From: Octopus sinensis
Lineage: Eukaryota
Assembly (NCBI RefSeq): GCF_006345805.1
Contig: NC_043024.1
Span: 1,426,001 to 1,490,000, forward strand
Direction: 5' to 3'
DNA length: 64,000 nt
Part shown: one piece after another, positions 7,754 to 60,764 of the stretch
How the letters are laid out: the number at the start of each line of letters is the position of its first letter
Numbering within the stretch: the stretch's first letter is position 1
Program-made: the position numbers and the translations under genes
Notes under the pieces: model-generated
Databases searched by the model: none
What the model was told of the DNA's origin: nothing
The model's input: the letters and a program-made list of their open reading frames with translations, nothing else

Positions 7754-10700
7754 GAGAGAGTTAGACGTGGTGTACAGATATTGAATATTGAGAACGAAAA
7801 AGTCGCCAGAGTTTTGGAAAAAATATTTTTATTTATTCATTATAATTAGCGCAAGTGCTAATGATAATGAATGAATGAAAAACACTTGTTCCCCAAAATT
7901 CTGGCAACCTCCTTTTTTTCTCAACACACATAGATATATATATATATATATAAAAAGCTTCATGTTTTGTTTTCTTTACAGAAACCTCTTACATGGCAGT
8001 ACTGACGACATCTTGAGATTGCTTGAGCACCGAATGCAATATCCGGATACGGCTGTCGTCCTCAAGGAAGAGGTAAGAATGAAGGCAATACATTTCTGAT
8101 GAATTCATAGAGTTGTTGGCATTAAAAGGATTCTTTAAACTTACAAATGGACTTGAAATAAATCTTTTTCTTTTTAGAACATTGCCTCTTGAGAGACATT
8201 ATCTCTCGAAAGAGTTGTTCTTCACTCCTGCTCCAGAGCGTCGGCTGCGGGGTCACTCCGAAAAGCTCTATCTATGACGATTTCATCTCAATCGAAGGAG
8301 AGGGGGCTTTCTCTGTCCGGGTTGCAGATCCGTGGAATAAGCTGCCGGACGAGATGGTGAAGATGCTGACGACCGCTCGGTTCAAAGTCTCTCTTGACCA
8401 GAAATGGCCTGAACTCTTTGTATGACCACCCTCCCTGTACATAACTCCCTGTCCTCCTACATGGCCTTGCTTTTACTTTTTGAGTCAATAAAAATTGAAT
8501 TGAATTGAATTGAATTAAAGCTATAAATTAATGGCCATCGACTGAGGTCCTGGTGACCTTTGTGGGTCCATATAAGATTTCGTGGTTAGAAGTTTATCTG
8601 CAATAAAAATGGTTGTATTTCTACAATACACGAAATATTTTAACAATTTCTCGTACAGTGAGGTGCAGGTGTGGCTGTGTGGTAAGAAGCTTGCTTCACT
8701 TAGTCATGCTAAGTGACTCACTTGGTTGTGAGAATTGGTGTTTGGTGGGGCGCATCTCGCCACCAAACTTTGTGACAATTTTGAAAATTCGACCAATTTG
8801 TGGAGGATTTTTTGTGTTCCTGCGGCTACTGTGACCTGGAGTACCTATTTCTTTACTACCTACAAGGGGCTAAACACAGAGGAATCAAACAAGGACAGAC
8901 AGATGGATTAAGTCGATTATATCGACCCCAGTGCATAACTGGTACTTAATTTATCGACCTCCAAAAGGATGGAAGGCAAAGTTGACCTCGGCGGAATATG
9001 AACTCAGAACGTAACGGCAGACGAAATACGGTTAAGCCTTTCGCCCGGTGTGCTAACGTTTCTGCCAGCTCGCCACCTGTGTGGAGTACCATTTTTTGGA
9101 ATACCTGTGGCCCAGGATTACCGAGTGGCCGGAATTGTGTTGCCGTGACTTGAACTGTCTTCCTTCATTCTTGCTGATTATTTTTGACTTTATTTAGACT
9201 TTTTGTTTGAACTATTTTTCGGATTCCCTTTTCTGCAAGCATGGCAAAAAAGGCAAACACTGCATTGGAGTGGGAGATTGTACCCGGCAAAGCAGTGGGT
9301 AAAAAACTTCAATGAGAGAACGGTGGTTTTGAAGATGTATTCCAAGTCTCTCGACACCATTTCCGTGTTCCCTCAAATGGAAATAGAAAAGGAGTTGGCA
9401 GAATATCTGCCAACTATAAGTCCTAGGGTTGATTTCTTCAACTAAAGCCCCTTTAAAGCAGTGCTCCAGCATGACCACAAATGACTTAAACATGTAGAAG
9501 AAAGAATAAAAAAGAGTTCTTTATAATATTTAATTATGAAAATGTAATAAAATTACACAGATATTGTTTTGAGCTGAGTGAGGGTGCTAGAGTCCCTTGT
9601 TCAAAAATATAAGGACACAGATCGTGTCGTATAGCCAGCTGGAGACGAATGTCTCCTGGGGCTAAATTACAGCAACATCCGTCCTAAACCAGGACTGCCA
9701 TATTATGTTGGCAAACAATCTTTACTCCAAAGTTCTGTTGCTGAATATCTCTCCTTGTGAGATTTACAAATAGTAATTTTCTAATGTAATAGAATTGTTT
9801 AAAACATCAAATGGTTATGGGGATTCCAGCAGAGTAAAATAGGGTCCTTAGGCACAAAATGGCTGAGAACCCCTTCTTTAACTAATGGCCTTCAACTTTT
9901 TGAAATTAATAAAAATTTCCAAAATTTTCGAAAGCAGTTTCTGAGTATTGAACCTTGATACATGTTACTCTACTCTCCTCCTAATTACCTGGCTCCCTCT
10001 CACTAACTATCCTGTTCTCACTCAACTGACCCCTTTTTATCTGTTTTTATTCTTCCACAGCTATGTCTTGAAGATGGTTATTTGACCCAAGGGAGTTTCA
10101 CTCCCGGAGGATTTGCAACATCCGTTGACCTTTGCCTCGACTTCAGAAGTTCTCGAAACTATGTCAGGAAAGAAGTAATTTTCATTTTCCTATCTTCTCC
10201 ATTTCCATTATTGTTGTTTTAAATTAAAATTCCTTTTTTTTTTTTCTTTGAGAGTTTGTTCCCATTGGATGGTCATTGTCAGCTGGTCTCTTGCACTATG
10301 ACCACAGCTTGACCAAACAGTGGTATGTGTGTGGAATTTCATTGACAGAAATTTTGAATTTTAAGAGGCCCATTGTGTGTGTGTGTGTGTGTTTATATAT
10401 ATGTGTGTGTGTGTGTATAAGAGGTTATGGTGTCATTGAGTAAAGCATGAAACAGCTGGAAGACCTATCTATAAATGTTCTAATATCTACACAGCCTTAG
10501 TTTTTTTTATCTCATTACGCAAAAAATTCTTATATATATGTACATATAAACAATTGCAGCATGAAAGGTGTTTGTAAACCATTTAAGAAACACACAAAAA
10601 CCGTTCGATTCACTTCAACATTTAAGTTTAATTTGTCAAAATATTTTCGTCACTTTGAGACCGCGACCTCTTCACTGAAGATCTTTGAGGGTTTCGCTTC

Positions 10701-12662
10701 CAGTTTGGGAATTGACAGCTATACCAATCCTCCTGCTGTTAGTTGTTCAAAGGATAAAGGTGAAATATTAACTTGCTTTGAAGCAGGCAAGTACGAGTGA
10801 ACCGGAAGAACATCAGGCTTCAGAAAACCTGCCTCAACAAAGTTCATCTGATGACCTATAGAAGGATGGAGAAGCAGACATTAAATTCAATGATGATAAT
10901 TTTTCCCTGCCTTAACCAAACATCTTGTTTTTTGCCCCAGTAATTTCTATAATTTCCCTCTCATTTTTTTTTTTTACCAGATAAGAAGGAGCAAATTCAA
11001 GGCAAGAGAGGTAGAACACCTCTGTCGGCTGAACAGCCCTAACATTTCCAAAATTTTGGGGTTCTGCGTCAAAAGTGACTGCTATGAGATTCTCCTGGAA
11101 TATTGTGGTAAGTTGAAATTTGGTTTTGTTGTTGTGTATGTTGTTGTTTAATTATTTCACTGTTGTCGGTCGTTAGTGTGGAACCATAATGGATCATCAT
11201 CGTTTAACATCCGCTTTCCATGCTAGCATGGGTTGGACGGTCCGACTGGGGTCTGGGAAGCCAGGAGGCTGCACCAGGCTCCAGTCTGATCTGGCAGTGT
11301 TTCTACAGCTGGATGCCCTTCCTAACGCCAACCACTCCATGAGTGTAGTGGGTACTTTTTATGTGCCACCGGCATGGTGCCAGGCGAGGCTGGCAACAGC
11401 CACGATCGGATGGTGCTTTTTACGTGCCAGCGGCACGGAGGCCAGTCGGGCAATATCTGAAAAAGTTTTTAGCTGGCTATATTGACCTCAGTACATTATA
11501 ATTCATCTCTTTTTAATTATCATATGGCTGAGTCTCCCTTGGTGTAAAGGGGTGTAGCACACACAAAATACATACCAAGTTGACTTACGATTAAGGAAAA
11601 GGACAGACTTAAGCTTGTGGAAAATGAGTGACTCTCTTTTGATGCAGACACAACACAGGCCATGCTTCCAGGGTTTTTGGATAAAGTTTTCAGAAATAAC
11701 CCAAAAGGTTTACCATTAATTCTTTGAAATATTTGTGGCTCCTGCAAGTAAAGACTATTAAACGTATGTTGATTCCTGTTGGTTTCTCTACAGGCATGGA
11801 TCTGCATTCTGCTATGAAAATGGAATGGAATCCGATCATCGATCAACACCTGGAAAGTTTCATAACTCAGATTGCTGAAGCAATTTACCACTGCAACCAT
11901 CAGAATATCTTTCACCTTGATATCAAACGTAAGTCTCCAGGTCTTTTGGTTGTGTGTGTGTGTGTGTGATATTTTTTGTTGTTATTTACTTTCGGTACCT
12001 CTGTCCATCACTAACTTCATTGGCATCCAAAACTGGCAAGATCGATGCTGTCAGTGTATCACTTAAACTGTTGCCAAGCAAGACCTGCAGAAAGGATGTG
12101 AGCTGCAAAAGGATTCCGGTGGGATTATATTTGGGGGAAGAAGTAATGAGAATAGTAGTCGGTGTGGGGCTTAGAAGTTTGGACACAACACATATGTTGG
12201 GAAGAGAACAGGTGAATGGGTTGGGAGGTGGCATGGGACCAGCAAGTTCTGAGGAGCAGAGGCCATTATTAGAGGAGTAGAAAAGTCAGAGAGAGAGCAG
12301 AGACGGTACACTTGTGTGCAAGAGGCTGGAATATCAAATGGCTTTTCTCTGAATGTGGATTATGATGACTTTGCATGTGGCAGTTGATTGTTCCAGATGT
12401 GGGAGCAAACCTGCATTCTGGGCCCCATTTGTCAGGAAATGTTGAAACTTGGTGTAGAGTTGGAACTGAAGTACTTTCTGGTCCTGATGAGAAGGGCCAG
12501 TCTTTGAGAAAGAGTTCTAGCTGTATTAAGAATGTACTTTCACCAGGCGAGATTGTTGATGATAGGTGGGGCCCTAACATTTGGGGTGACCATAAAAAAT
12601 CCAGCATCATTTGTCAAGTGATGTTGGGGGACAAACACAGACACACAAGCATATACACACAC

Positions 12663-12695
<33 letters not shown>

Positions 12696-14727
12696 TATAT
12701 ATACGACAGGCTTCTTTCAGTTTCCATCTACCAAATCCACTCACAAGGCTTTGGTCGGCCTAAGGCTATAGTAGAAGACACTTGCCCAAGATGCCACGCA
12801 GTGGGACTGAGCCCAGAACCATGTGGTTTGTAAGCAAGCTACTTACCACATAGCCACTCCTGAGGGACAAGGCCTGAAGTTTTGGGGGAGTGCTAGTCAA
12901 TTACATCGACCCCAGTGCATAACTGGTATGTGTGAGTGTGTGTGTGTTTGACTATTTTTGTCTCATACGTATTTTATCCATTTTCATTCTACAGCCCAGA
13001 ATATTTGTGTCTACGCTTATCAAAACGGCATCCAACTAAAACTGACTGATTTTGGGGCATCAAAGAATGCCAACAACGAATTCTTCGGTGAAGGAGTTAC
13101 ACTGATGTATGCGGCACCTGAAATCCACTATGATTGTTGCAAGAAATTCCTGTTACAGTGTGACCGTAATTCTGAAAAATATCAAGGAGGTTGGTGTATA
13201 TATCTCTGTATCTATAAAATTCTTTGTCTGTCTGTTTGCTATGCATTCTCAAACAGCTCAACCAAATTAAATCAAATTTTACAAGTATTACACTTCACGA
13301 GTGTCATCACCTAAAGTTTTTTCGTTTGCATTAAAACAATATAACATTTTACAGAGATAATCTTTCTATAGTCAACTATTGTATAGGACATTTTATATCA
13401 TGACCATGATGTCACATTTTGTATCTGAGTATGTGCCTGTGAATCTGTGCGTGTTTCTGCTTTAGGTACATTATTAAATACACACACACATCTGGACATG
13501 CATATACATGTGACGACTGACATGTGTGAATGTATGTCTGTGTGTATCTGTCTTAGTATATGTATGTGAGTGTGTATGTGTGATAATTTTTATTTACATT
13601 TGGATTAAAACACACATACATATCTGTTCAATATCCTGTTGAATTTCTGAATACACTTCGACCCACTGGGATGCCACTGCATAACTTGACACTAAAACTG
13701 GATGCTCTCATTACGTTGCTTAGGAACCTTGACCCGTCTCACCTGTGTAAAGGAACTTGCTTAATTGTTGCTTCCATGAATCCCCATGTCCTACAGGCAA
13801 CAATCATAACAGGTAGTCACAAAGGAGAGAATGTCATTATTCCCAAAATTCCTTGAATTTAAGATGCTTCAGTTTCCAGTTAAACTAAGTTTTGATATTT
13901 CAATCAACAAATCCTAGGGTCAATCCCTCAAGGAAGCTGGACTTGATCTCTCTACTACCTTTTATCCAAATTTTAAGCTCAAAAGGATAGGGGGTCCCTT
14001 ATACACAAATGTTCCTTATACATGTTAAAATATGGTGTATATATATATATGTGTATAATTGTATAGGCAGCGAGGTTATTATTAATTATGAAATTATTCC
14101 CAACATCCTTCATGGTTATTACATGTGTGTATACATATTTGTGTTTTGCAGTTTTGGACATAACTCAACATTTCTGTAGCAAGTATCATACATGTTCAGT
14201 GACGGAGAAGTGTGACCTTTTCTCTGTTGGTTTGGTTTGTCTGTTCATTAAGTGTAAAAATGACCCATGGAAGTTGTTGATTAAACAAGTAGAGTACTGC
14301 ATTCCAAAAATGGTATTGTTCCTTCTAATTTTTCCACTGACTTCATCTAAAAAAATTTTTTTTTCTTTTTTGGTGCAGGCTAGAAGAATGGGTGGTTTGA
14401 ACTCACAGCCTCTACCCCATTGTAGTTGCACACACCTGTCAATTTTCCCTTCTGTTCTTCCTCTTCCCATCCTCCTGTCGTCCTTGCTCTCTTCTTCCTC
14501 CCTTTCTCCATAAAAATTTCTATCAAACGTTCTGCTTACCGTTTCTTGCTTGCAAATGCATCACCCAGGAACCCTTTCCAGATGTTACTGTCACCCAGGG
14601 AACTTGTATATGCTTGCTTGATTTGCTCGAAATAGCAGTCAAGTCTTCTTTAAATTCAGCTAACTCCTTTACAAAAAGAAGGAAACTTACTGACCCACAT
14701 GTGGATATACATACATGTGCCTTCATG

Positions 14728-14775
<48 letters not shown>

Positions 14776-15926
14776 CACATTTGATACATGCCAATCCCAT
14801 CCATTCTGATCAGCCAAAAGCTCAAACTGGACACAGCAGGCCTCCCATGACCCTTTGCTGTCAAATTCTTGTGACTGTTCCTTAATGAGGACCCTACTGC
14901 GGCCTTGCACCTTTTTCTGGCTATTTAAAGCTGCAGAACTTTTTCCTATCTAATATCTTTTAATGAGGTCTTCACCAAAAAATTCTACTTGAGTTCTTTT
15001 GAATAGTTATAATTAACCCCTTCGTTACCAACCCGGCTGAAACCATCTCTGGCTCTGAGTACAAATGTCTTGTTTTCAAAAGTTTTAAATTAAAACCTTC
15101 CACCAAACCTTAGTCACAATTTATGTTCCTAACACCAGCTTAATGGTAACTAAGTTATTTTACTAAATTCTTTATTATATTTAAAGTAATTGAAAGAAAC
15201 ACAGAGCATCTCAAAATAAATATAGTAACGAAAGGGTTAAAGTATAGATTTTCTTATAAATAACTGAGAAATTACAAGTCAAAGTAAATATCAGGGGTTA
15301 CTCTCCCATTTTGGGCCCTACATTTTTTCTCATAACTTTTTTTCTACTGAACCAAATTTGGATTATTTTATGTCAAAATGTAGCTTACCGCTGCTCCATC
15401 ATAGTGCCAAAAAAAAATGAATCAAGATTAAGCTAAAACTGAATTAATGGTAAAATGTTAATTTGGCCGCGAGTAAGAGTTGGAAACAACAAATTATCAC
15501 TTTTTCATTCACTTAAAGATGCTTTTTTTTTCTATCTAATATCTTTTAACGGGATTTTCACCAAAATATTCTACTGTTTCGTGGCTATATTTAAGAAATG
15601 ATTATAGTAAAAGAATTAATTAATAGTAGTAGTAAAATCACTTCGATATAAATATAGCCACTCATCAGGTTATTCTACCAAATATATACATTTTTATTAT
15701 TTTTTGCAATTTACTTAATCATCGGTATATTATTGTTATTTTAATTCTAATATTTCTATTATATGTAATTTTCTAGAAGGTGTAATTTAATTGTTAATTT
15801 TTAATTGATAAAAGGTGGGGTTTTTTCTAATTTTTATATATATATATTATATTTTGTGAAATTTGATTTAGTATTTCTAAATTGAATTTTTCCCTGTAAG
15901 TTAGGAATAATATTCCCTCAGATAAT

Positions 15927-15963
<37 letters not shown>

Positions 15964-16330
15964 AATTAAGGACTGAACACGAAAAGTGGACAGTCAACAT
16001 GCTAGATATAGACGTCAAATCGCCATTCTCCACAAAAGATTATGTTCTCAAATCAAACTCAGCACAAACCCAAGCAATAAACAAGTGAAAATATACGAAA
16101 TAAAATACTTATCCATGTACTGATCAGTTTCGGCTATTATTATCCGCAAGGATACCTGTAGCCTTCATCAGCATGGCCCGATATAAATGCAATTTGCTGG
16201 ACTAGATGTTGACTGTCCACTTTTCGTGTTCAGTCCTTAATTGGTATATATAAATATTTTAATCTTCGGATTCTTTTTTTAATATGCTAGAACACTGGTT
16301 TTAATTGATAAATATTGATTTCTACCCTTA

Positions 16331-16361
<31 letters not shown>

Positions 16362-17787: not shown

Positions 17788-18449
17788 TTGCAAAATCTTG
17801 ACCCCCCCCCCATCCTGTTCAGTTACTCTAGCTAATTGATTGCTTATTAGATGATAGAAATCGGTCTTCCTTTTTATACAACAGTAAATGGAACCTTTGT
17901 GAAGACATACAGCATCCCACACACTCGGTCATTCGTATATCTTCCCTCTGTCTGCGAAACAATTAATTCAATAATTCATTTTTAGTTAAGATCAGAAGTT
18001 CACACTTTCCATTAGCATTGCAATGTTCATGTTGATGTTATTCATGGCTCCCCTAGATAACGCTGTCCCTGTTTTTCTGCTCCCCGTTGCAAATATCAAT
18101 GGGAACAAATTTAGCAATTTTTGGCAAAATATGTGCCCTTTTGCCGAGTTATAACAAAAAGTTAGTGAAAATATTTTAAATGTTTACAGTTGGACAGATA
18201 GACAAATATAACAAAATAATTTGACAAAAAATGTGAATTTTTAATTATTTTCTGAAATTTTAAAAATGACACAGTTTATGAGGTTCTTTTCTTCTTTCTT
18301 TCTTTCTTTCTCCCCCCCCCCTCTTCAATCTCCAGAATGACCAAACTTCATCATTTATTAACATTTTACCTGTTACAGTCTCAGGTAAAACTTATCACTT
18401 TGCTTTCTTCTAGCATTGAATCTCAGTTTGAATCCCTTTCAACCGTCAG

Positions 18450-18973
18450 GTTCCTCTCTCAGATGTAATAATTCTTATTTTATTCACATCATTTTGAATT
18501 AATCATCCATTATCTCATAGCTTCAAGATTTCAATGACACGATTGTTTATTTTTAGAACGACATTGTAGGATAGGTATGAAAGGCCAGATCTGGCCAGGT
18601 TAACCCTTTAGCATTCAGATTACTCTGTCAAATGCTTATTTATTCACATCGTCTGGAATTAATCATCCATTATCTCATAGCTTCGATATTTCAGAGATGT
18701 GATTGTTTATTTTTAGAACGACATTGTAGGATAGGTATAGGAGGCCAGATATGGCCAGTTTAACCCTTTAGCATTCAAATTACTCTGTCAAATGCTTATT
18801 TATTCACATCGTTTTGAATTAATCATGCATTATCTCATAGCTTCGATATTTCAGAGATGTGATTGTGTTTTCTCAGAATGATTTTGTGTTGCAGATCTGC
18901 AACGCTTGATCTCCCCAGTTTAAACATAAAACTGGTGGAATATTTGGGTTGGACTGATTTAAATGCTAAAGGG
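18450..18973. mobile_element. Second piggyBac-type MITE, as a tandem of three ~160-bp units
   Basis: TTAA|CCCTTTAGCATT at 18604 and 18764; AATGCTAAAGGG|TTAA ends at 18973; a degenerate copy lies at 16588-16688. Confidence 0.75.
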
Positions 18974-19685: not shown

Positions 19686-19695
19686 TAGCAAGTGA

Positions 19696-20957: not shown

Positions 20958-21009
<52 letters not shown>

Positions 21010-22683
21010 TAGATAGATATATATACATATATGTTTATATATCGATAGATTGATAGATATAGATATATATTCATATGGGTTTATATCATCATCATCATCG
21101 TTTAGCGTCCGCTTTCCATGCTAGCATGGGTTGGACAGTTCAACTGGGGTCTGGGAAGCCAGAAGGCTGCACCAGGCTCCAGTCAGATCAGTGTTTCTAC
21201 AGCTGGATGCCCTTCTTAACGCCAACCACTCCGTGAGTGTAGTGGGTGCTTTTTATGTGCCACCGACACAGGTGCCAGACGAGGCTGGCGAACGGCCACA
21301 CCCGGATGGTGCTTTTTATGTGCCAGCGGCACGGAGGCCAGGCGAGGCTGGCACGGCCACGATTGGATGGTGTTTGTTACATGCCAACAGCACGGAGGCC
21401 AGTCGATGCAGTGCTGGCTACGGCCACATTTGGATGGTTCTCTTATGTGCCACCGGCACTGGTACCACAAACTACAAATTCCATTGACGTTGATCGATTT
21501 CGATTTTGATTTGATTTTAATATATATATATATGTACACATATATATATATACATATGTTATATGTGTATATATCATCTGTGTAATATATATGTGTATAT
21601 ATCATCAGTTACAAGATCAGTGATCATATGACACTGTATATTCTATATATTGTGAGCGAGGTCAGACTAATGCCATGCCTAGAAAACGAGTACCCACCAC
21701 TGAAGTGATCCAAGAAGATCGAAATTACATGATCTGGTGGTCTTGAAGCTAGGCTGGCAGAAGTTCTTACCTGCTCGTAGTGAATGTTGTGTGCAAAACA
21801 CACTGAGTAACCAGCTGGAGGAGATGTCTTCCTGGGGTTAAAATAATAGCAGAATTGTTGGTTCTTAGAAAACACCCATGTTAAAGTGTTGACAAACACA
21901 CACACACACATTTCTAGCTGTCAATATATCTATCTATCTTGGGAACAGCTACTTGCGTAAGTTGAAGTATGCCTATGTTAACGTGCACCCGTGTGATGAG
22001 GGTGGCAGTGTGTGTGTGATGATGGTGACAGTGTGTGTGTGGTGATGATGATGATGGTGATAGTGTGTGTGTGTGACCATGTGTATGATGATGATGATGA
22101 TACTTGTATACAACATGAATCTGATGGTGACATTGATGATGATTGAGCAGATATCAATGATGATGGTGGTTCTGATGATGTTTGGGAAAATAAAAAATAT
22201 TAATGATTTGTCTGTGTGTGTGAGAGAGAGAGAGATGGTGATGTGAAGAGTTGGTAGTGAGACAAAAGTGGATGGTTGTGTGTAAAGATGGCAGTGGTGA
22301 GAGTATTGTGATGGTGTTGGTGATGGTGTCTTTGACAATTTTCATTCCTTTTATTTTCGTTAATTTTATTTTATATCTAAAAACTACACAACATGGAACA
22401 TGTGGCACAACAACAACACATACACAGACACACAGACGTTGTTATGCATGCGAGACACACAGACGTAGAATGTGTATACACTCAACCACACTGTAAGAAC
22501 AACAACTAATGAAGCAACACAACACACATTACAAAACATTACAACACATGCACAACACAACACACATGGAGCAGCATAAAACACATGCGTAACAACACAA
22601 CATGTAGAATAGCATCACATACATAACAACACAACACATATACACAATACAACACCCATGCATAACAACACCAACTTATGCAC

Positions 22684-42378: not shown

Positions 42379-43106
42379 GTTTATGAATGAATACTTTATT
42401 TATTTGGTATTTAAGAGGTAATTTGGAAATAAAGGCACAGACAGTCGTGAAAAACACTTGCAAAGCAACAAAAACGACCGCACACACAGACACACAACCT
42501 GGTAAAAAGAAAATAAAGCGAACCAGATATGGGTCCCCCACAAACACATATATATCTACTATCATAAATACACATTTCCCCTCCAAAATGTATAAAATAC
42601 ATGAAGGTCTGGAGGCAAGCGAGACATTAAAAGAGAGTCGCCTGTCATTGATGAGGTCGCGCGAATGGCGGCGAAAGGACTCTGACGAACCGAGCCGAGT
42701 CATTGATTGATTGATTTGATCGAACGATTTACTCGGGCAATGGTAATCGATTAGTTAAGTGGTTAATTGATTAACCTGTTGACTAACAAATCATCAGAAG
42801 TGAATAAAAACCAGAGTGTGTTTATTATCGACAAATGACCCTCCCCAGAAAACATATACCTGCGTGTGTATACACACGTAATGTATGTGTGCACAGATAC
42901 AAATATATATACACACATATATATTAGTGGATTTATGCATTATTTCTAAATCCCTTATTTACTCAAACTATTCTGCGATTACATTTGAATTATAAATTAC
43001 AAGCTCCAAAGTGATGCCACATGTTTCGCTTGTTGAAGCTTTCGTTCTAATATATATATATATACATATATATATGCGTGTGTGTGTGTATGTATATATA
43101 TGTGTG

Positions 43107-43145: not shown

Positions 43146-43150
43146 GTACG

Positions 43151-47092: not shown

Positions 47093-47156
<64 letters not shown>

Positions 47157-47785: not shown

Positions 47786-47830
<45 letters not shown>

Positions 47831-48783
47831 CAGATAGATAGATAAATAGGTAGGTAGGTAGATAGATAGATAGATAAATAGGTAGGTAGATAGATAGATA
47901 GATACACAAAACGATCGATCGATTTGATCGGTAGACAGAGGCAGATAGATAGGTATATATATGTGTGTGTATATATATTATATATATATATATATATGTA
48001 TATATATAGATAGATAGATAACCCGCATATATTCATCTATATATCGTCGTTTAACGTCCGTTCTCATGCTAGCATGGTTTGGACGGTTCGACCGGGGTTC
48101 TGGAAGCAGAGGCTGCACCAGGCTCCAGTCTAATGCAATGTTTCTACAGCTATGCCCTTCCTAACGCAACCACTCCGTGATGTAGTGGGTGCTTTTTACG
48201 TGACCTGCACAGGTGCCAGCGGGCTGGCAACGGCCACGGTCAGATTGGTGTATTTTATATGCCACCGGCACGGAGCCAGTCGAGGCGGTGCTGGCATCGG
48301 CCACGAGTCGGATATACATACCAATCTCATATACACGTCACACATACATGCACACAAATGTCATACGTTTATACAGATATATACAAAAATATGAATAAAC
48401 AGGCACCTGCAATCACAGACATATACATACACACGCATCAGATGACACATTCACACATGTATGTCGCATCCGCATTAATGCAGGAAAATTTAACACACAT
48501 ACACACTTAAATAGACCACCTTCATATACATACACACAAATCTCTCATCCATACAGCTACGAGCTAGTAGGAAAGCCTTTATGTAGTCTCCACACCTGCT
48601 AGAAAAATGAGCCAAATGTACCTAAAATTGTTGCCCCAGAAAACAAGGACATGCTGGATAATGTGGTTTGTGGGACTGGGTTCCCTGCTCGTAGAAAATA
48701 TTTGGGATGGTCACAGGTGAAGCATCATTGATCATAAGTAAAAGCAATACATACGCACATACATACATGCATACATAGACATA

Positions 48784-49390
48784 CATAATAAAAAGGAGTA
48801 CTGGTGGAATGTCCCAGTGAAGACCCCCATAAAATGTAAACATAATAGACCTGACATAGTGATTTGGGACAGAGAAGAGAAAGTGTGTACAGTTGTGGAA
48901 ATCAGCTGCCCAATGGATGTTAACATAAAGCTAAAAATATGCGAAAAGAAAATATCTACACTGAACTATTTCAGAAATTTGCAGTTGCTCTATCCAGATT
49001 ACAAGTTCAGGTTTTATAGCTGTAATTATTGGGGCACTGGGCTATGTAACACACTGCCTAAAGACCAATCTTGAGAAAATAGGCTTCTCAAAGCCAGAAA
49101 AGAGGAAGTTGATTTGAGGACTACAGATTCAAGAATCACTGGAACTGTAAAAGTCTGTAAACCTTTCCAGAAGTTTATCATTTAAATATATATGAGCATG
49201 TCTAGATATGCAACTATATGCATGAGAATACATGCATAAAACAAAACATATAAATCTGCATGTATACATACATATATACATACAAAAATACCCTGTTGAT
49301 GTTGTTGAAATTCCAATAAAGTAGCCTTGGGTCTAGGTTAGAAACCAGCTCTTTATTGGCAAGAAATCTTGAAATTAATCTGAATAATGA
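48784..49390 (+). mobile_element. 3' end of an RLE-type (R4/NeSL-like) non-LTR retrotransposon
   Basis: YWWNVPVKTPIKCKHNRPDIVIWDREEKVCTVVEISCP (restriction-like endonuclease), then frameshifted VIIGALG; stop near 49184. Confidence 0.8.
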
Positions 49391-50119
49391 CACACAGACA
49401 GGCATTGGAGATGCTTTATACCTTGCAGAAATTGCAGGAGCTACCCAGAGGTTTTGGAAACTCTTCTAAATCCATCACAATGTCGTAAAGCTTTCCATAT
49501 TGTCTGCATGTATCCCAGGGTCACAAGTGTATTATTGCTTCTGAATGGGGCAGCAAAGACTGAATTAGTCTTCACCTCTGTGCGTGTATGTGTATCTCTT
49601 TGTGTGTCTATGTTTGCCCCCCCCCATTTCTGCATGACAACTGGTGTTGGTGTGTTTACGTCTCCAGTAACTAGCAGTTTGGCAAAAGAGTCCAATAGAA
49701 TACATACTAGGCTTTAAAAAACGTCCTGGGGCCGATTGTGCATGTGTGTGTATGTGTATGTATGTATCTATGTGTGTGTGTGTGCATGTATGTATGTGTG
49801 TGTGTGTGTGCATGTATGTGTGTCTTTTGTGTTTGTGTTTGGCTACCCCACCCACGACCCGACAACCACTGTTGCTTTGCTTACCTCTCTGTAACCTAGC
49901 AGTTCAGCAAAAGAGACTGAGAGAATAAAGTACTAGGCATTAAAAACCCCAAAAAAGTAAGTCTTGGCGGCAATTTGTTCAACTAAAACCATTCAAGGCA
50001 ATGCCCCAGCATGGCCATGATGCAACGAGTGAAATAATTAAAAGATAAAAAATAAAACATGCCAGTACAAGAGGAAACTGTAGTCAGATTGAATTTACTC
50101 TTTTTTTTTTTTTTTTTTT

Positions 50120-50496
50120 TTGTTTCAGTCATTTGACTGCGGCCATGCTGGAGCACCGCCTTTAGTCGAGCAAATCGACCCCGGGACTTATTCTTTGTAA
50201 GCCCAGTACTTATTCTATCGGTCTCTTTTGCCGAACCGCTAAGTGACGGGGACGTACACACACCAGCATCGGTTGTCAAGCAATGCTAGGGGGACAAACA
50301 CACACACACATACACACACACATATATATATATATATACGACAGGCTTCTTTCAGTTTCCGTCTACCAAATCCACTCACAAGGCATTGGTCGGCCCGGGG
50401 CTATAGCAGAAGACACTTGCCCAAGATGCCACGCAGAGGGACTGAACCCGGAACCATGTGGCTGGTTAGCAAGCTACTTACCACACAGCCACTCCT
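50120..50496 (-). mobile_element. SINE family A
   Basis: Full-length reverse copy with an A-rich tail. Confidence 0.92.
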
Positions 50497-51557
50497 GAAT
50501 TTATATTGAATTGACATTTTATTGCTTGTGTCATCTGTAGACAATTGTACTCTGCTGATGTAACAAAGACCAGAATCAACAAAGCCAATATCTTCCTCTC
50601 GTTTGCTATTCGGCATTTCTCTGTCTTGTCTTTTATTAATTACACTTTTCTGATCACAGACACGCACATGGATATACATGCGTACACAGAGAGATATATG
50701 CCTATAAATATGCATATATACAAACACACACACACACAGGTGGATCCATATACATGCATGTGCAAACTAATCGTTAAGATAGATTTGCATATTAACTGAT
50801 GTTGCCGGCTTTTGTATGTTGGTAGGCCAGCTCTGGGGAGGTTTATACCTGTGTCTACATGTATACATACTTAACTACAAACATTCATATGATTATGCAT
50901 ACATGATTCATATCGTTATTCCAGATATACATACATGTGCATGTGAGTGTGTGTGTGTGTGTATATATATATATATGTGTGTGTATCACCGTGACCGACC
51001 AGGCTATCAGATGTTGCTACACATCACTGGTCACAATGCACTTTGCATTATTTTAGCCTTCAAATGATGCCACCCTGCTGGCTACGGGAGCAGGCCAACA
51101 GAAGAAAGAGGGAGAGAAAGTTGCGGTGAAAGAGTACAGCAGGGATCGCCACCATCCCCTGCCGGAGCCTCGTGGAGCTTTAGGTGTTTTCGCTCAATAA
51201 ACACTCACAACATCCTACAACCACGAGTCCACTGGGCCATTGTACCTCCACATATATGTATGTATATATACGTATAAAAAATATATTTAAAAAAATACAA
51301 AATGGGACAAGAATGCAAAACACTCAAATAGACGACACAAAAACGGACGGGTCATTCGAAGCCTCTTCAGTCGAGAACCAGATCATCCTTGCAATTTCGG
51401 CTGATTAATCTATATATATATATATATTGATATAGATAATAGAATGAATGGTTTACACCTGGTAGCTTACTGGTAAAGCATGGTCATTTTCAGAAACGAT
51501 CGTTAGGTATATAACAAATGAAAGACAGAAGATGGAATATATGAGAATTTATTATTA

Positions 51558-51663
51558 ATCACGACAATTGTTTCGACACATCCAGCATTGATTCCTCTTG
51601 GGTGGGACACTCAACAACTGGTTCAGAGGCATCCGGTGGTGCAGATGTATCTCGTTGGGTGAT
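51558..51663 (-). ncRNA. Core-mutated hammerhead-like motif inside an inverted-repeat element (51511-51954)
   Basis: Minus strand: ATCAC-CCAACGA-GATACATCT...GGATGTGTC-GAAA-CAATTG-TC-GTGAT. Confidence 0.6.
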
Positions 51664-52277
51664 AAATAAATAAATACAACTCATTAAAATGACTGCTCTG
51701 CAATGTAACTTTCCATTTTGTAGAGAGAAAAACAGCCAGACGGAGGAAATATCTTCATTTATATAGAAGATCAAAAATAAAAATCCCAGATGGCAAAAAG
51801 AGAAATGAACAAGCAATCCAGTGAGAAAAATATTAAAAATAACCGTTAACAGATATGGATGTATAAGCGCTCTTGTACAAGCTGCATAGCACAAGTACAC
51901 TCGCTCATGCAAGCACATGCTTGTATATTCCATCTTCTGTCTTTCATTTGTTATCATCATCATCATCATCATCGTTTAACGTGCGTTTTCCACGCTAGCA
52001 TGGGTTGGACGGTTCGACTGGGGTCTGGGAAACCCGAAGGCTGCACCAGGCTCCAGTCTGATCTGGCAGTGTTTCTACAGCTGGATGCCCTTCCTAACGC
52101 CAACCACTCCGCAAGTGTAGTGGGTGCTTTTTATGTGCCACCGGCACGGGTGCCAGGGGCGTCTGGCAGCGGCCACGATCGGTTGGTGCTTTTAACGTGC
52201 CACCGGCACGGAAGCCTGTCAAGGCGGCGCTGACATATATATATATATACACACATATATACATTCTTGTGTCTGCT

Positions 52278-52560
52278 CTCAGAATGGCATCACAAAGCAA
52301 ATAAAAATTGCTGTGTCCCGCGCTTGTGTTCTGACATCGCTCCTTTACTCATGTGAGACATGGACCCTTTACAAATGTCATATAAGGGTCCTTGAACGCT
52401 GTCATCAGAGATGTCTCAGATACATTCTGTATGTTGGCTGGACCTTAAAAACTCCAGACACATAGGTCCTGAGTACAGTTGATATCTCGAGTATTGAGGC
52501 GATGGTGCACAAACGCCAGATACATTGGACTGGACACCATATTAGAATGAAGGATAGGAG
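52278..52560 (+). pseudogene. RTE/BovB-like LINE RT C-terminal fragment
   Basis: ACVLTSLLYSCETWTLYKCHIRVLERCHQRCLRYIL...SIEAMVHKRQIHWTGHHIRM. Confidence 0.8.
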
Positions 52561-53007
52561 CCGCCCCTTTTAACAGGGACCAACCCGGATTTAAAATATC
52601 GGACATCAATTTGGAATTGTATTAAAAAAAGTTGTCAAAATATTTGGTGTATTTTGGAGAAGTATAAGCAATTGATTGGTTTCAAATTTTGGCACAAGGC
52701 CAGCAATTTCAGGGCAGGGCTAAGTTGATTACATCGACCCCAGTGTTCAACTGGTACTTATTTTATCAACCCTGAAAGAATGGAAGGTAAAATCCACTTC
52801 AGAATGTAAAGAATTGAAAGCATTTGTTCAACAAGACAATAATTCTATTAGCTTGATACCTTAGATTTATCACTCATAAATATGAACAAAAAATATTTTA
52901 TGGACCCACAAGGGCCATGTGGACCCCAGTTGAAAACCACTATTCTATATGATGGTTTGATCTGCTAGAATCACTAGCTACATATTTATTGAAATAACAC
53001 TCTAATG

Positions 53008-53225
53008 CAGTGCTTTTCAAACTTTTTGTTGGAGCTGAACCCAAGGAAACATTCCACTGGCTCGAGGAACCCCTGTGCAATAATTTAATAGTCTTATGCA
53101 CACATATCTGCACAGGAGAATTAAAAATTACTGCTGATTTTAGCAGTTTTGTAACTTCTTGTGGAACCCCTGGACTGTACTGGCGGAACCCTAAGGTTCC
53201 GCGGAACACTGGTTGAAAACCACTG
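53008..53225. mobile_element. hAT-type MITE
   Basis: CAGTGCTTTTCAA...TTGAAAACCACTG termini; 8-bp TSD ctctaatg/gtctaatg. Confidence 0.85.
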
Positions 53226-53241
53226 GTCTAATGTCTTAGAT

Positions 53242-53630
53242 GGTGGAGGCGCAATGGCCCAGTGGTTAGGGCAGCGGACTCGCGGTCATAGGATCGCGGT
53301 TTCGATTCCCAAACCGGGCGTTGTGAGTGTTTATTGAGCGAAAACACCTAAAAGCTCCACGAGGCTCCTCAGGGGATGGTGGTGATCCCTGCTGTACTCT
53401 TTCACCACAACTTTCTCTCACTCTTACTTCCTGTTTCTGTTGTACCTGTATTTCAAGGGGCCGGCCTTGTCACTCTCTGTGTCACGCTGAATATCCCCGA
53501 GAACTACGTTAAGGGTACACGTGTCTGTGGAGTGCTCAGCCACTTACACGTTAATTTCACGAGCAGGCTGTTCCGTTGATTCGGATCAACCGGAACCCTC
53601 ATCGTCGTAACCGACGGAGTGCTTCCCATA
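53242..53630 (+). mobile_element. SINE family D
   Basis: Near-identical to 31933-32320; 13-bp TSD taatgtcttagat (53229-53241, 53631-53643). Confidence 0.92.
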
Positions 53631-55704
53631 TAATGTCTTAGATATGTGATGACAGATGCAAAAAAATTGGATGACCATAGCTGGAATGCTTTTGATCATA
53701 TCTCTTCAATTAAGACTGACCCAGGGCATAACCACTCCACCACCACCACCACCACCATCGACAGAAACAATAGTAACAACATCACTAATGAACTCATTCA
53801 ACCCAAACCCCACCCCCACCGTTTACCACCAACAACCGCAAGGCCTTATCTCATCCTCCTACAACCGCCACTCGTTCCTCCTCCACCTCCTCCTCACCGA
53901 GCACTGCTTTCCTCCGTCAGCTGTGCCCTGCCTTTCACACACTTCGTGTTGCAGTTGCCATGCCGACTGCACTGATGAAGCTGTCTTCGTTTATTGTCAC
54001 ATCCTCATCACAGCCTGATAAAATCTCTTGTTATTATTCATAACTCTACCGCTTCTCCGTTCCCACTCTTTCTCTCTCTCTCTCTCTCTCTCCCTCTCCT
54101 TCCCCTCTTCCCCTCTTGGTTTCAAATATTGCCACAAGGCCAGCAATTTCAGGAGGAGGAGGGGGAGAGGGGGTAAGTTGATTATATTGACCCCAGCGCT
54201 CAACTGGTATTTCTTGTCATATCATTACACTTGCTACACACACACACATTTCTGTACCTTTCTCACTCTATTTGTGTGTGTGTGTGTGTGTGCGTGCATG
54301 TGTGTGTGCATGTGCGTGTGTGCGTGCGTGTATATGAATAGACAGACGAAGAGATTTCTGTCTCTCTGTCTCTGTCAGTCTCTCTCTCTCTCTCTCCATC
54401 CATATATACATACACATATACATACATACATATATATATGTGTGTATGTGTGTGTGTAAGTATGTATGTATTTATATATGTATGTATTTACTTAAAAGTA
54501 CAAAGTGATATAGGGGTTTTGAGTGTAACCCACTATGGGATATCATTTATCCAATATACTGCCAGTATATTGGATGTTTTGGATGCTCCTATTTAATCTA
54601 AATAATTAGTTAATAAATTATATGAATTGGTATTATCTGGAAGTTGATGATTGAAAGAAATCTATTCCTTCATTTTCTTATTTTGTATTATGTATGTATT
54701 TATATATGTATGTATGTATATATGTATTTATGTATGTATGTACAAACACGCACACACTCACACACACACACACATATGTATGTATATCATCATCATCATC
54801 ATCATCATTATTGAGTTAGTGATCCTTTCCATGCTTGCATGTGTTGGACAGAATTTACAGGGGACAAATTTTCTCTGGGCAGATGCTCTTCATATCGCCA
54901 AGCCTCACCTCTTCCCAAAGTATTTCTTCAAGGGTTGGACATGTTTTTACAGAATATTCGAAATGAAAGTCACTACTTGTATGATATATATACGTGTGTT
55001 TGTGTGTGTGTGTATATTCTTTTATTGTTTTATTCTTTTACTTGTTTCATTCATTTGATTTACACATACATACGTATACACTCATATATAAATACATATA
55101 TGCATGTACATGTACCAGAATATATAAACACACACACACACACACACACATTTACACATACACATATGCATGCAAGCACACTGACACATACATGTACATG
55201 TACACACACACATACACACACACATGCACACACACAGATCTATACTCACAATTATGCATACACATTTACACATTTTCTGACCTTTTTCTGACCATCTAAC
55301 ACAATAGTTATGTTTGTTAACTTCATACTTTTGTCCAAAATCCCTTACAGAACAAGAGCTTTTTTGGCATTTGTTACGCAATCACTGATGATTTGTTGAT
55401 GTAATCTGTTTATAAGATATTTCCTTATATAGCAGTTATTGCGTTAATGAAACATATGTAAAATGTATTGCATAAATGTAGAAATCTATCTCCACATTTG
55501 AAGCGTTGAGTTCAAAACATCAGAAATGAACAGCAGAAGAAAAAAGAAACAACAAAACCATTGAATTATAATGTATTTGCTTCTTACAAATGGAACTTTT
55601 GAAGCAAAACTGAATACATGGAATTCTAAATATTGGTTATATGTGCTGTGATCAATAAACCCCACACAACATAAATATTATATACATATATATACATACA
55701 TACA

Positions 55705-55775
<71 letters not shown>

Positions 55776-56494
55776 TCATCATCATCATCATCATAGTGTA
55801 ACGTCCACTTTCCATGCTAGCATGGGTTGGACTGGTCGACCGGGGTCTGGGAGTTCAGAAGGCTACACCAGGCTCCAATCTTGATCTGGCAGTGTTTCTA
55901 CAGCTGGATGCCCTTCCTAATGCCAACCACTCAGTGAGTATAGTGGGTGCTTTTTATGTGCCACCGGCACAGGTGCCAGGGGAGTCTGGCATCGGCCACA
56001 ATCGGTTGGTGCTTTTAATGTGCCACGGGCACGGAAGCCAGTCAAGGTGGCGCTATCATCACAGTTTAACGTCTGCTTTCCATGCTAGCATGGGTTGGAC
56101 AGTTCAACCGGGGTCTGGGAAGCCAGAAGGCAGCACCAGACTTCAATCTTGATCTGGCAATGTTTCTACAGCTGGATGCCCTTCCTAACGCCAACCACTC
56201 AGTGAGTGTAATGGGTACTTTATATGTGACACCAGCACAGGGGCCAGAGGAGGCTGGCAATGGTCATGATCGGTTGTTGATTTTTACGTGCCACTGGTAC
56301 AGACACCAGTCAAGGCGGTGCTGACATCAGTCACGTTCAGATGGTGCTTTTTACGTGCCACCAGCACTGGTATCACAACAAAAATTTCCATTTGATTTTT
56401 ATTTGATGTTGATGTACTTGACTCAATAGGTCTCCTCAAGCACAGCAGAACTACAAGAGCTAGATAGGCATCTCCAATTAGCAGGCCATGCTAC

Positions 56495-56537
56495 ACCAGA
56501 CTGATGATGAGCAAAGACTCAGAAACTAGTCTCTGGT
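56495..56537 (+). ncRNA. Minimal type-I hammerhead ribozyme
   Basis: ACCAGA-CTGATGA-TGAG(caaaga)CTCA-GAAA-CTAG-TC-TCTGGT: all stems pair, GUC cleavage triplet. Confidence 0.82.
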
Positions 56538-56912
56538 TGCAGGCTTAGCTGGGTGGAGGTGCTTGTCTCCCCCTTGTAAACATAAGGACACAGGAAATGT
56601 GTCAAGGCTGACAGGAAGCATTGCTGCTTCCTTGGGCTAAATAGCAGTAGTATGATTCCCTTCATGGGACTGTCACATTAAGTTGACAGTATACAACTAC
56701 TTTATCATACCACTACTGCATAAATCTCTCTGAGATATTTAGAAATCTATTATTTCTATTTATATAAATATCAATATATATATATATACACAAATATATA
56801 TATATAATATATATATATAGGCGTGTATCTGTAAATGTCTCTCTCTCTCTTTCTCTCTATATATATATATCTAGGCATGTATCTGTACATGTCTATATAT
56901 ATGTATATATAT

Positions 56913-56950
<38 letters not shown>

Positions 56951-57948
56951 TATATAATATATATATAATATATATATAATATATATATATATATTATATA
57001 TAATATATATATATAATATATATATAATATATATATATATATAGGCATGTATCTGTACATGTCTCTCTCTCTCTCTGTATATATATATAAAGGTATGTAT
57101 CTGTATATGATGTCTAGGTATACATGTACACATGGCAATCATAAATCTTGCACTGAATCATCGGGATTGACTGACATTTTTGTAACTGGAAGAACGGTCT
57201 ACAGTGCCAAACCGTTTAAATGTCAACACGGCAAAGAGCAAAAGGACTAATTTAATAACAAGAGAATGCAAACTCCCATTTTCCTTTGAGAAGTGGTTCC
57301 ACTTCTTTATTTGACATTATTGGGGGAGGTGAAGGTGGTGGGGGAGGGGGTGTTGCTTCCTCCCTTTGACCTTCTTCTTCTCCTTCTGTCACAATTCCAT
57401 TCACATCTCAGACGCTTTGAAGCAGTCGTTCTCAACCAGGGCCCATTGAGGTCTATCTAAGATTTGGATGGGGTGGGGTCTCCATGCAAGTAAAGTAGTA
57501 AATCAAGGACCTTCATTGGCATTTTTAGGATTCATATATATATGTATATACATAATATATATATGATGGGCTTCTTCAGTTTCCACCTACCAAATCCACT
57601 CACAAGGGTTTGGTCATCCCAAGGCTGTAGTAGAAGGCACTTGCCCAAGGTGCCATGCAGTGGGACTGAACCTGGAACCATGTGGTTGAGAAGGAAACTT
57701 CATGCCACTGTGCCATATATACAAGATTCAGTAAGCTAAGCCTGAAAGAGACAGAGTTTTGTTAGAGGTATGCAAAACTTTAAGCTGCAGGGAGTCAAAT
57801 CAAACCGTTATATGATAATATCTATCTATCTATCTATATGTATATATGTATACACACACACACACTCATTCACACACACAAACGCACACACGCACACACA
57901 ATATATGTATACACACACACACACTCATTCACACACACACACACACAA

Positions 57949-57986
<38 letters not shown>

Positions 57987-57991
<5 letters not shown>

Positions 57992-59278
57992 CAGGAAGTA
58001 AATAGACATCTTTAATTTTCAAAATTTCTGATCTAAGCATCATGATATGTTTTCAGCGGTGTAGAATTTACAATGTAATTATTCTAACCCTAATTATTCT
58101 TTTTCATTCCAGGTGCCATTATATTAAACATTGGCGAAGAGTAAACCATGCCATGCACAAAAAATTCAGCAGAACTGTCAGATTTTCAAAGAGGTCGTAT
58201 TGTTGGGCAATCTGAGGCTGGTCTTAGCCAGCGAAAAATTGCCGAAAATCTTAAAATTCCTCTTGCTACTGTTAATAGAACTATAGTGAAATTCAAAAGC
58301 CAAGGAAAAGAATCAACAGATTCTCGTTCCAGGCGACCTGGGCCCTCGGAAAGGAAGCTTCGCTGTTTGAAGAGAATTGTGGAAAACGAACCCCGTTCGA
58401 AGGCTTCTGATGTTGCAAAATATCTAGAAGTTAGTCCAAGAAAATGTGTTACATATCTGCATAAGCTTGGGTATTATGGACAAGCAGCTAGAAGAAAACT
58501 TCTCCATCAACCAATTAATATCAGGAAAAGAAAGAAATGGGCAAAGGAGATGTCAGAAAAATCCAGTTCATCTTGGGATAGAGTGATTTTCTCAGATGAA
58601 TCTAGATTTGCATTATTTTCAGACAATGGACGTGTTTGGATCTGGAGGCTTCCCAATGAAGAATTTGATTTAAAGTGACTCCAACCAATTGTGAAATATG
58701 GCGGTATCTCTGTAATGGTATGGGGAGCTGTCAGCAGTAATGGTCGTTCTGAGCTGATCGAATGTGTTGGAACCATAAACTCTGAAAAATACATCGAAAT
58801 ACTTAAGCAAGGATTACTTCCGATGTATTCACATGATAACATAACTAAAAATGAGTTTTTATTCATGGAAGATGGGGCTCCATGCCACACAGTGAAATGG
58901 AATCAACAATGGCTGACTGAAAATGGGATCAAAAAGCTTCCTTGGCTGAGCCAATCTCCTGATGTGAACCCAACTGAAAATCTTTGGAACATACTAGATA
59001 GAGCTATACGAAAAACTCGACAGAAAACTAAATCTGAAGATGGATTGTTTCGATTGTTGCATGAAAAGTGGGCAGAAATACCACAAGAGATAATCACAAA
59101 GCTCATCAGTTCAATGCCAAAAAGATTTTCTGAATTAAAAACTGCAAAGGGAATGTCAACTAAATACTAAAGTATGTAGTCCTACATGTCGATTACATTT
59201 CAATTGTTCGTTTTGCATATTAAATAAAAGATTTTGAAAATTAAAGGTGTCTATTTACTTCCTGCATGTCTGTGTCTG
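57987..59278 (+). mobile_element. Tc1-family DNA transposon, full length (~1.3 kb)
   Basis: ~37-bp TIRs catgcaggaagtaaatagaca(t/c)ctttaattttcaaaat; right end followed by TA; left end merges into (CA)n. Confidence 0.95.
58148..59170 (+). pseudogene. Tc1 DD34E transposase (340 codons) with one in-frame TGA at 58676-58678
   Basis: The two track ORFs share one frame; paired-like HTH N-terminus, FSDES, VMVWG, EDGAPCH and SPDVNPTENLW with 34 residues between D and E. Confidence 0.95.
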
Positions 59279-59683
59279 TATATAATAAGGATTATTATGA
59301 AGTAGCATTAGCATTACCCTTTAATTCCTTTTTGAGATAATGACGTATATATAGATATATATAGTAGGGGCGCGTAGCTTAGTAGTTAGGGTGTTGGACT
59401 TACGGCTGTAGGATTGCAGTTTTGATTCCTGGTTCGAGCGATCTGTTGTGTTCTTGAGCAAAACACTTCACTTCATGTTGTTCCAGCCCTCTCAGCTGTA
59501 GAAATGAGTGTAGTCTGGAGAAGGATAGGCTCCACCAAGCTTTCGTGCCCTAGCTGTGCTGCATGGCTGCAGTGCCCCAACGACAAGCAAGGGGTTAAGG
59601 GACTTGTCATCAAACACACACACACACATATATATGCAATAAGATAGAGTGAGGTCATAGGAATAACCGATTATCTGATGAAA

Positions 59684-59774
59684 TTCAAGGCTCTGATGAA
59701 GCTATCAGTGTTATTCAGGTACTCAACTACAAATCCAGTGTATCTTATGGCAGAAACAGGTGTAAGCCATTGAA
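59684..59774 (+). ncRNA. Type-I hammerhead-like motif with a long stem II
   Basis: TTCAAGGCT-CTGATGA-A-GCTAT...ATGGC-A-GAAA-CAGGTG-TA-AGCCATTGAA. Confidence 0.7.
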
Positions 59775-59904
59775 GTTCCTAAAACAATCACTTATTCTTT
59801 TGTAATCTCTCTTTATTATCACGTTCAAAAACATACATATATTGAGTTCTACATCGAGTTATTGATCTCGCAATGCCTAAGTGATATATATATATATATT
59901 TTCC

Positions 59905-60231
59905 CAGCGTCACCTTACTGGTACTTGTGCCGGTGGCACGTGAAAAACATTTGAGCGAGGTCGTTGCCAGTGCCGCTGGAGTGGCTCCTGTGCAGCTGGG
60001 CATCTGAAAAACACCATTTGAACGTGGCTGTTGCCAGTACCGCCTGACTGGCATGTAAAAGCACCCACTACACTCTCGGAGTGGTTGGCATTAGGAAGGG
60101 CATCCAGCTGTAGAAACTCTGCCAAATCAAGACTAGAGCCTGGTGCAGCCATCTGGTTCGCCAAACCTCAGTCAAATCGTCCAACCCATGCTAGCATGGA
60201 AAGCGGATGTTAAATGATGATGATGATGATG
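59905..60231 (+). mobile_element. SINE-like family C copy, opposite in orientation to the others
   Basis: Ends ccaacccatgctagcatggaaagcggatgttaaat(gat)n. Confidence 0.88.
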
Positions 60232-60282
<51 letters not shown>

Positions 60283-60764
60283 CTTATATATATAATGTAT
60301 ATGTGTAAATGTATGTGTATCATCATCATCATCGTTTAACGTCCGTTTTCCGTGCTACCATGGGTTGGACAGTTCAACTGGGGTCTGGGAAGCCAGGAGG
60401 CTGCACCAGGCCCAGTCTGATCTGGCAGAGTTTCTACAGCTGGATGCCCTTCCTAATGCCAACCACTCCGTGAGTGTAATGGGTGCTTTTTACATGCCAC
60501 CGGCACAGTGCCAGGGGAGGCTGGCAGATACATATGCATATACATATTCATATACATACATACATGTATATATATTGTACCGTTGGCGATTTTTTTTCCT
60601 CTGTCTTCCCGTCTCTGGATCTTTCCTTCTCCTATGTTTCCGACGAAGAGCTCTGGTCGAAACGTTTAACCCTCCTTCTTCCCTTCTTTCCTGAGCGTCC
60701 AATAATACTATATTTATTCCACGTCCTCGCGTTGTTGTGTTTTTTTGTGCTTTCATGTTTGAAT

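Follow-up and report, generated by a model that had tools for sequence, protein, structure and literature searches.

Hammerhead ribozymes are a recurrent component of Penelope-like retroelements, and thousands of type-I motifs per animal genome have been described, with an extra base at position 9a, a palindromic stem III and, in some natural variants, a U3-A8 instead of a C3-G8 core pair (Cervera and de la Peña, 2014, PMC4209133). Type-I models were also used in a 2026 preprint on retrozymes (Li et al., bioRxiv 10.64898/2026.07.22.740005). Naiads, in contrast, have been described as Penelope-like elements without canonical hammerheads, eight of them being flagged as 'HHR_half_core', the second half lying 35-50 nt away to one side or the other (Craig, 2021, PMC8557442). 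A different set of hammerheads, known from environmental RNA, presents the three sequence blocks of the ribozyme (C with the catalytic CUGANGA, G with GAAA and S with the cleavage site) in permuted order; in the known alignments at most 1-2 nt separate CUGANGA from the next stem (Eckert, 2023, PMC10085705). Here we analyze a microsatellite-rich stretch of 64 kb (the window) of the 2.72-Gb Octopus sinensis assembly (NC_043024.1, positions 1,426,001 to 1,490,000), in which a preliminary description had reported eight hammerhead-like motifs and one half motif. The account that we consider probable is that the window holds ten Penelope-like insertions, nine with type-I motifs of the known kind and one that is a truncated copy of a family predicted to form a permuted, split hammerhead, which likely cleaves as a monomer and likely derives from Naiads. 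This split permuted hammerhead is likely the self-cutting RNA that Naiads were thought to lack, which would explain why they seemed to be without the hammerhead of other Penelope-like elements.

The half motif, situated near 51390-51410, does exist, but it is not half of a type-I hammerhead. What it represents is the G and C blocks of a permuted hammerhead that has lost its 5' part to truncation, an architecture that had been overlooked together with the family-wide core variants presented below. It belongs to the tenth family of the window, family G:

51270 to 51411, minus strand: 5'-truncated copy of family G, comprising GAAA (51398-51395) with the 3' strand of stem II, one strand each of stem III, the I-II helix and stem I, and CUGANGA (51370-51364).

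In this copy the upstream stem II strand and the cleavage-site block are absent and 5 nt are deleted behind the core; without a cleavage-site block it cannot cut in cis. Genome searches with two full copies of the family gave 2964 and 1630 candidates, and five sites in 1.0 Mb of arbitrarily chosen stretches indicate roughly 10^4 copies in the genome. In full copies the order is S-G-C, with a stem III strand, U16.1, H17 and a stem I strand preceding the GAAA block, and the CUGANGA block standing last. Read from the 5' end, the motif starts with a stem IV strand, the hairpin P0, the stem II 5' strand (beginning at G10.1) and one strand of a helix between stems I and II; continues with the stem III strand carrying U16.1-H17, the stem I strand, a short linker and the stem II 3' strand with GAAA; and finishes with the second stem III strand, the partner of the I-II helix, the stem I partner, CUGANGA and the stem IV partner. 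Two reconstructions of the half motif were discarded: a type-II hammerhead, as stem I cannot form as a local hairpin, and a plain type-SGC hammerhead with a 5-nt insert, once subfamily d, which has no stem II partner after A9, had been seen.

A block-order scan identified further S-G-C families, first K and M and then N. In all of them, as in family G, stem II forms between the strand before GAAA and one that lies upstream, P0 directly precedes this upstream strand, and the strand before P0 pairs with the bases after A9 to form stem IV. The catalytic block C is thus interrupted, stem IV and hairpin P0 separating A9 from G10.1 as two additional helices, in all five families of this type, including the one introduced below. 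The helix between stems I and II joins their distal sides, as it does in the motifs of Eckert (2023). By its sequence the layout reads as the SGC/CSG class with an opening between A9 and G10.1, a position at which a bulged base is already present in many hammerheads.

Pairing was assessed in an alignment of 50 of the 65 full copies of family G, after exclusion of one deleted copy, one error-rich copy, ten further copies of subfamily a and three second copies. The seven-helix structure pairs 89.5% of the cells of this alignment, with 95.0% for stem I, 96.4% for stem IIIa, 90.5% for the I-II helix (7 pairs) and 95.3% for the upstream stem II. CUGANGA, GAAA and the U-H dinucleotide stand in register with stems I and III in family G and in all five families, and within the core N7 differs between subfamilies of G. 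Changes on both sides of a pair occur in stem I (two pairs, in 17 and 20 copies), in the I-II helix (one pair, 13 copies) and in stem IV (two main pairs, 14 and 16 copies). The covariation score of the family was reached by none of 500 shuffles, a type of test that is inflated by the relatedness of the copies, and controls in which the structure was slid along the alignment pair at most 48% of cells. In families K and M (8 copies, with the two M rows out of register in the S block) 11 of the 15 pairs change on both sides, including three of the five pairs of the upstream stem II.

The placement of stem II is the point at which family G could still be an ordinary type-SGC hammerhead, with its true stem II partner after A9 and the upstream strand acting as an attenuator. 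A weak four-pair partner is indeed present 1-6 nt after A9 in subfamilies a-c of family G and in families K and M. However, this downstream helix pairs 73.5% of cells in family G, compared with 95.3% for the upstream strand, largely fails to form in subfamily d, and has no counterpart in family N, which like subfamily d lacks a downstream partner; besides, the upstream strand covaries across families. When nine representatives were folded with a pseudoknot-blind method, the upstream stem II was favored in six and the downstream one in none, the downstream pairing probability being 0.00 in all nine. We thus regard an ordinary SGC hammerhead as very unlikely and retain the upstream stem II, a choice by which stem II does not follow A9 within 1-2 nt: its partner lies upstream and two helices intervene.

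A descriptor of the complete split motif was run on 1.99 Mb of retrieved DNA, including 1.0 Mb of arbitrarily chosen stretches, with 12 shuffles of the same DNA as controls. It gave 54 matches from five families, 42 of them in loci that had been retrieved for family G, and one match in the 12 shuffles. In the arbitrary 1.0 Mb there were three matches, one of which belongs to a fifth family that had not been used for model building:

Locus L206, 9880 to 9975, plus strand: the fifth family of the split type, detected with the final descriptor and having U3.G8 in its core.

In the 16 matches listed the gap between P0 and G10.1 is always 0 nt, though 0-2 nt were allowed. The Rfam hammerhead families gave no match at or above the gathering threshold in six loci with the permuted motif, and of 46 matches to a metagenome pattern search none pass our descriptors, two viral-contig patterns giving no match. 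Another possibility is that there is only the known picture of scattered Penelope pseudo-long terminal repeat (pseudo-LTR) ends with type-I hammerheads, and that the permuted reading has been over-fitted. In its favor, the structure was derived from these very sequences, the shuffle tests benefit from related copies as mentioned, and the readings of published Naiads described below were made by eye. Over-fitting would nevertheless have to produce seven helices, an exact register and three core blocks that recur in families with little or no sequence similarity, over a background of one match in 12 shuffles, and a fit of the fifth family and of published Naiads that had no part in the model; we consider it extremely unlikely and continue with the split permuted fold.

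The carriers of the split motif have the insertion anatomy of Penelope-type elements. Family G insertions present a fixed 3' end at (TA)n, variable 5' truncation and inverted 5' pieces with a tail, and longer copies are tandems of units of ~750-850 nt with a pyrimidine-rich body and no open reading frame (ORF). Pseudo-LTR tandems, an inverted 5' copy, a tail and a (TA)n target are features of Naiads, which are common to other Penelope-like clades too. A set of 25 published Naiad 3' ends of 300-600 nt each, from the supplement of Craig (2021), was read by eye, many of them picked because flagged 'HHR_half_core' and with names assigned via table order. A permuted motif could be read in 12 of these, seven split and five unsplit. 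The split motifs come from Naiads of two octopuses, a squid, a ctenophore, two cnidarians and an acanthocephalan (stem II with four of five pairs in the squid, stem I with just two pairs in the ctenophore), and in family N the strands of stems I and II are nearly identical to those of the acanthocephalan Naiad. The unsplit ones, of order C-S-G with an I-II helix, belong to four nematode Naiads and one spider Naiad. Six of the seven 'HHR_half_core' Naiads viewed carry the permuted layout; 11 of the 25 ends have no motif in the part displayed, and two ostracod ends gave no clear reading. Taken together, these sequences suggest that family G and its relatives likely derive from Naiad retroelements. 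We also lean, with less assurance than for the window itself, towards a broader proposal, by which active hammerheads of non-circularly permuted order would be present in Naiads of hosts as different as ctenophores, cnidarians, cephalopods, nematodes and spiders. One branch would use a four-block form, split between A9 and G10.1 by a multi-helix junction, that falls outside the six permutations thought possible; this would be an abundant architecture in animal genomes, missed by Rfam and by standard descriptors and present in ~10^4 copies here.

In the mechanism that we propose, a monomer-competent hammerhead would sit in the 3' pseudo-LTR and cut after H17 once ~130 nt have been transcribed, the two cleavage products probably remaining paired through four helices. 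Cleavage without a dimer is expected because stem III of family G is not palindromic and has 4-7 pairs; palindromic type-I families would need tandem dimers instead. The non-coding units would be mobilized in trans by Naiad proteins. A rather unlikely alternative is that the split fold is hammerhead-derived but non-catalytic, e.g., a protein landing site or an off-state, and is kept for recognition in reverse transcription. It draws on the finding that cleavage is dispensable for in vitro insertion of an Anolis Penelope element, on the many copies reached in this genome by families with U4C and U3.G8 cores, and on the broken link between A9 and G10.1. Yet five families and, by eye, several phyla retain the core, GAAA, U16.1 and a non-G H17, and the unsplit C-S-G motifs of nematode and spider Naiads fit a permutation that has been shown to cleave in vitro (Eckert, 2023), which together favor a catalytic role for the split hammerhead.

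Several observations weigh against the reading of a split, Naiad-derived hammerhead. The upstream stem II is not favored by pseudoknot-blind folding in two K copies or in M; in family G conservation prevails over covariation in stems II and IIIa, a large share of the two-sided changes corresponds to the division between two subfamilies, and pairing is poorest in stem IV (74.5%). Four of the five families went into shaping the descriptor, and a simpler earlier version was not discriminating on the arbitrary 1 Mb (one match against 0-1 in shuffles). The split at A9 departs from all cases known to Eckert (2023), because of the spacing of at most 1-2 nt found there. The link to Naiads depends on readings by eye of ends in part selected for their flag and named by table order. 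Moreover, no Naiad ORF (N-terminal GIY-YIG, CxC motif, C-terminal reverse transcriptase) was found in ~2 Mb of DNA or in seven extensions, no whole-genome search with Naiad proteins being made, and a search of the loci retrieved did not find the motif of the octopus Naiad itself.

The remaining nine insertions contain the eight motifs of the preliminary description, whose sequence is present at every coordinate reported, as is that of the half motif, and a ninth type-I motif (21694-21743, plus strand) that it did not mention:

10531 to 10678, minus strand: family J unit with a type-I hammerhead, palindromic stem III and U17; the family core is swapped to G3-C8, this copy having G3.G8.
15576 to 15947, minus strand: family F remnant, in which an inverted 5' piece adjoins a hammerhead that breaks off after the GAAA block.
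15930 to 16361, minus strand: family A, inserted in (TA)n; an inverted 5' piece and tail (16202-16361) precede a pseudo-LTR-like unit with an intact hammerhead (16113-16176).
21620 to 21890, plus strand: family H unit, with the hammerhead at 21694-21743 and A9U in this copy.
42640 to 42800, plus strand: family I, consisting of old copies (70-90% identity) with a U3.G8 core and a non-palindromic stem III.
51420 to 51955, minus strand: family D insertion that includes an inverted 5' piece; U4C predominates in the core of the family, and this copy adds G5A, likely by CpG decay.
56452 to 56770, plus strand: family B unit, 5'-truncated, with an intact hammerhead (56495-56537).
59683 to 59885, plus strand: family C unit, with a hammerhead (59684-59774) of intact core in which one change disrupts the stem III palindrome.
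60576 to 60770, plus strand: family E unit, with a minimal hammerhead (60636-60670), a U4C core in most copies and U17.

These motifs are ordinary type-I hammerheads of Penelope-type repeats, real and of an already known kind. All eight architectures are there, but the core is intact in only three (16171 on the minus strand, 56501 and 59693 on the plus strand), and several of the window copies are likely inactive. Intact motifs clearly exceed the background of 40 block-wise dinucleotide shuffles of the window (mean 0.025, none of the 40 reaching three). With one core mismatch allowed there are eight sites against a shuffle mean of 3.4, a number reached by one of the 40 shuffles, and loose motifs by themselves are thus near chance. 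However, genome searches assign each of the eight to a separate multicopy repeat family, as the proposed different carriers implied, so none of them is due to chance. First-look candidates, which do not represent copy numbers, amount to 705 for family A, 1747 for B, 734 for C, 1731 for E, 2124 for F, 451 for H, 68 for I and 2242 for J, and to 4720 for a family D query that included the half motif. The Rfam scan of the whole window was dominated by microsatellite matches to microRNA models, and among the 150 matches listed out of 302 there was a single hammerhead, below threshold; the best hammerhead score among those listed was 30.9 bits, versus a gathering threshold of 52.

The idea that the motifs mark many Penelope-like repeat families is supported by their anatomy, since inverted 5' pieces occur in families A, B, D, F and J and tandem copies also in A, B and J, often at (TA)n, as described for Penelope-like elements by Craig (2021) and as in Cervera and de la Peña (2014). 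Stem III had been described as often palindromic; together with the order C-G-S this applies at the family level to A, B, C, D, E, F, H and J, but not to I. The density of the population is not unusual: 60 arbitrarily chosen 10-kb stretches (600 kb) contain 16 intact C3-G8 type-I motifs, versus 0-1 in five shuffles, and the three in 64 kb are average for this genome (P=0.24), in line with the thousands per genome already published. In family F the 15574 motif stops after the GAAA block without a cleavage site, and what looks like its stem I strand derives from an inversion junction. The inversion junctions of this family (window 15664-15675, loci L117 and L129) lie inside the hammerhead's own stems, a position that suggests template switching at the hairpin.

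Core variants are a family-wide property. Family J has G3-C8 in 53 of 68 copies in all retrieved DNA and G3.G8 in eight, and among ten copies not retrieved via the J search eight are G3-C8 and none is G3.G8; on the tree the G3.G8 copies force at least three changes. In the Anolis Penelope element a single change at position 3 or 8 abolishes cleavage and the double change restores it partly; by analogy, G3-C8 of family J appears to be a compensatory swap that arose naturally, and the window copy, with G3.G8, is likely inactive. We found no natural G3-C8 hammerhead family in the literature, in a search that was thin on subscription papers, G3-C8 appearing only as an engineered rescue in the sources accessible. 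At locus L182 (G000:C30 near 11.814 Mb) an array of at least seven family J units of ~165 nt, each with a (TA)n tract, mixes G3-C8 and G3.G8. The U4C core CCGACGA is present in 27 of 37 relatives of family E and in eight of 25 of family D, in which two CpG-decay products account for five and four further copies; U3.G8 occurs in six of 11 family I copies. Families B and C (56495-56537, 59684-59774) have a family-wide extra base on each side of the entry to stem II (C/U.A or A.A).

In agreement with the preliminary description, which had seen no Penelope ORF, tblastn with Penelope proteins of this genome gave no match in the window. The genome contains 5029 GIY-YIG candidates, and among 30 loci checked a U3-A8 type-I motif lies downstream of GIY-YIG in eight and a window family in sense just downstream in none. 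This does not show the carriers to be non-coding, as the families may represent ends truncated from elements that do code. The association of family E with a Penelope ORF in loci L079 and L256 was dismissed, as the ORF has its own pseudo-LTR. The 3' pseudo-LTR hammerhead of the Penelope-like ORF in L256 (3520-3560, plus strand) resembles families I and J in stem II and has C at position 9. In L276, downstream of GIY-YIG, a type-I hammerhead read by eye has an apparent A3-U8 core pair, which with C-G, U-A and G-C would make all four 3-8 pairs in one genome. Other features of the window are a weak protein-kinase domain match (12952-13314, plus strand; PF00069, E=0.00036), likely a host-gene exon, so that neighboring insertions may be intronic, and a two-frame Tc1-like transposase (58145-59170, plus strand) with matches to HTH_Tnp_Tc3_2 and DDE_3. 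The frame at 48742-49074 (plus strand) resembles the restriction-like endonuclease end of a non-LTR element in its motif, with no Pfam match.

If the split permuted hammerhead is what it appears to be, it would bring non-circular RNA permutation from environmental RNA into animal chromosomes, and the catalytic strand would not need to join stem II, which would widen ribozyme searches and the design space. Monomer-competent beside dimer-type ribozymes, in a genome where positions 3 and 8 naturally pair as C-G, U-A or G-C, would moreover provide material on whether cleavage is selected for in Penelope transposition. No report of permuted hammerheads in Naiads or in animal genomes was found in a literature search that was thin on subscription papers.

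Compared with known systems, the type-I families resemble the Penelope hammerheads of Cervera and de la Peña (2014) in the extra 9a base of several families, the palindromic stem III and the many families per genome, as well as in the U3-A8 variants, here in coding elements. They differ in that family J fixes G3-C8 and that D and E are mostly U4C; in its accessible part Forgia (2023) reports no such core variant. The short tandem non-coding units, such as the ~165-nt arrays of family J, are like those of non-LTR retrozymes (Cervera, 2020, PMC7229834; Li et al., 2026), which carry type-I hammerheads. With Naiads (Craig, 2021) the split families share insertion at (TA)n, the tandem arrangement of pseudo-LTRs, inverted 5' pieces with a tail and, by eye, the same motif in the 3' untranslated region, whereas they show no ORF and hence would be non-autonomous relatives. 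The closest described fold is that of the type-SGC/CSG hammerheads (Eckert, 2023), with which the split motif has in common the non-circular order with crossing stems, the short linker between stems I and II, the I-II helix and the full conserved core. [quoted passage not shown]

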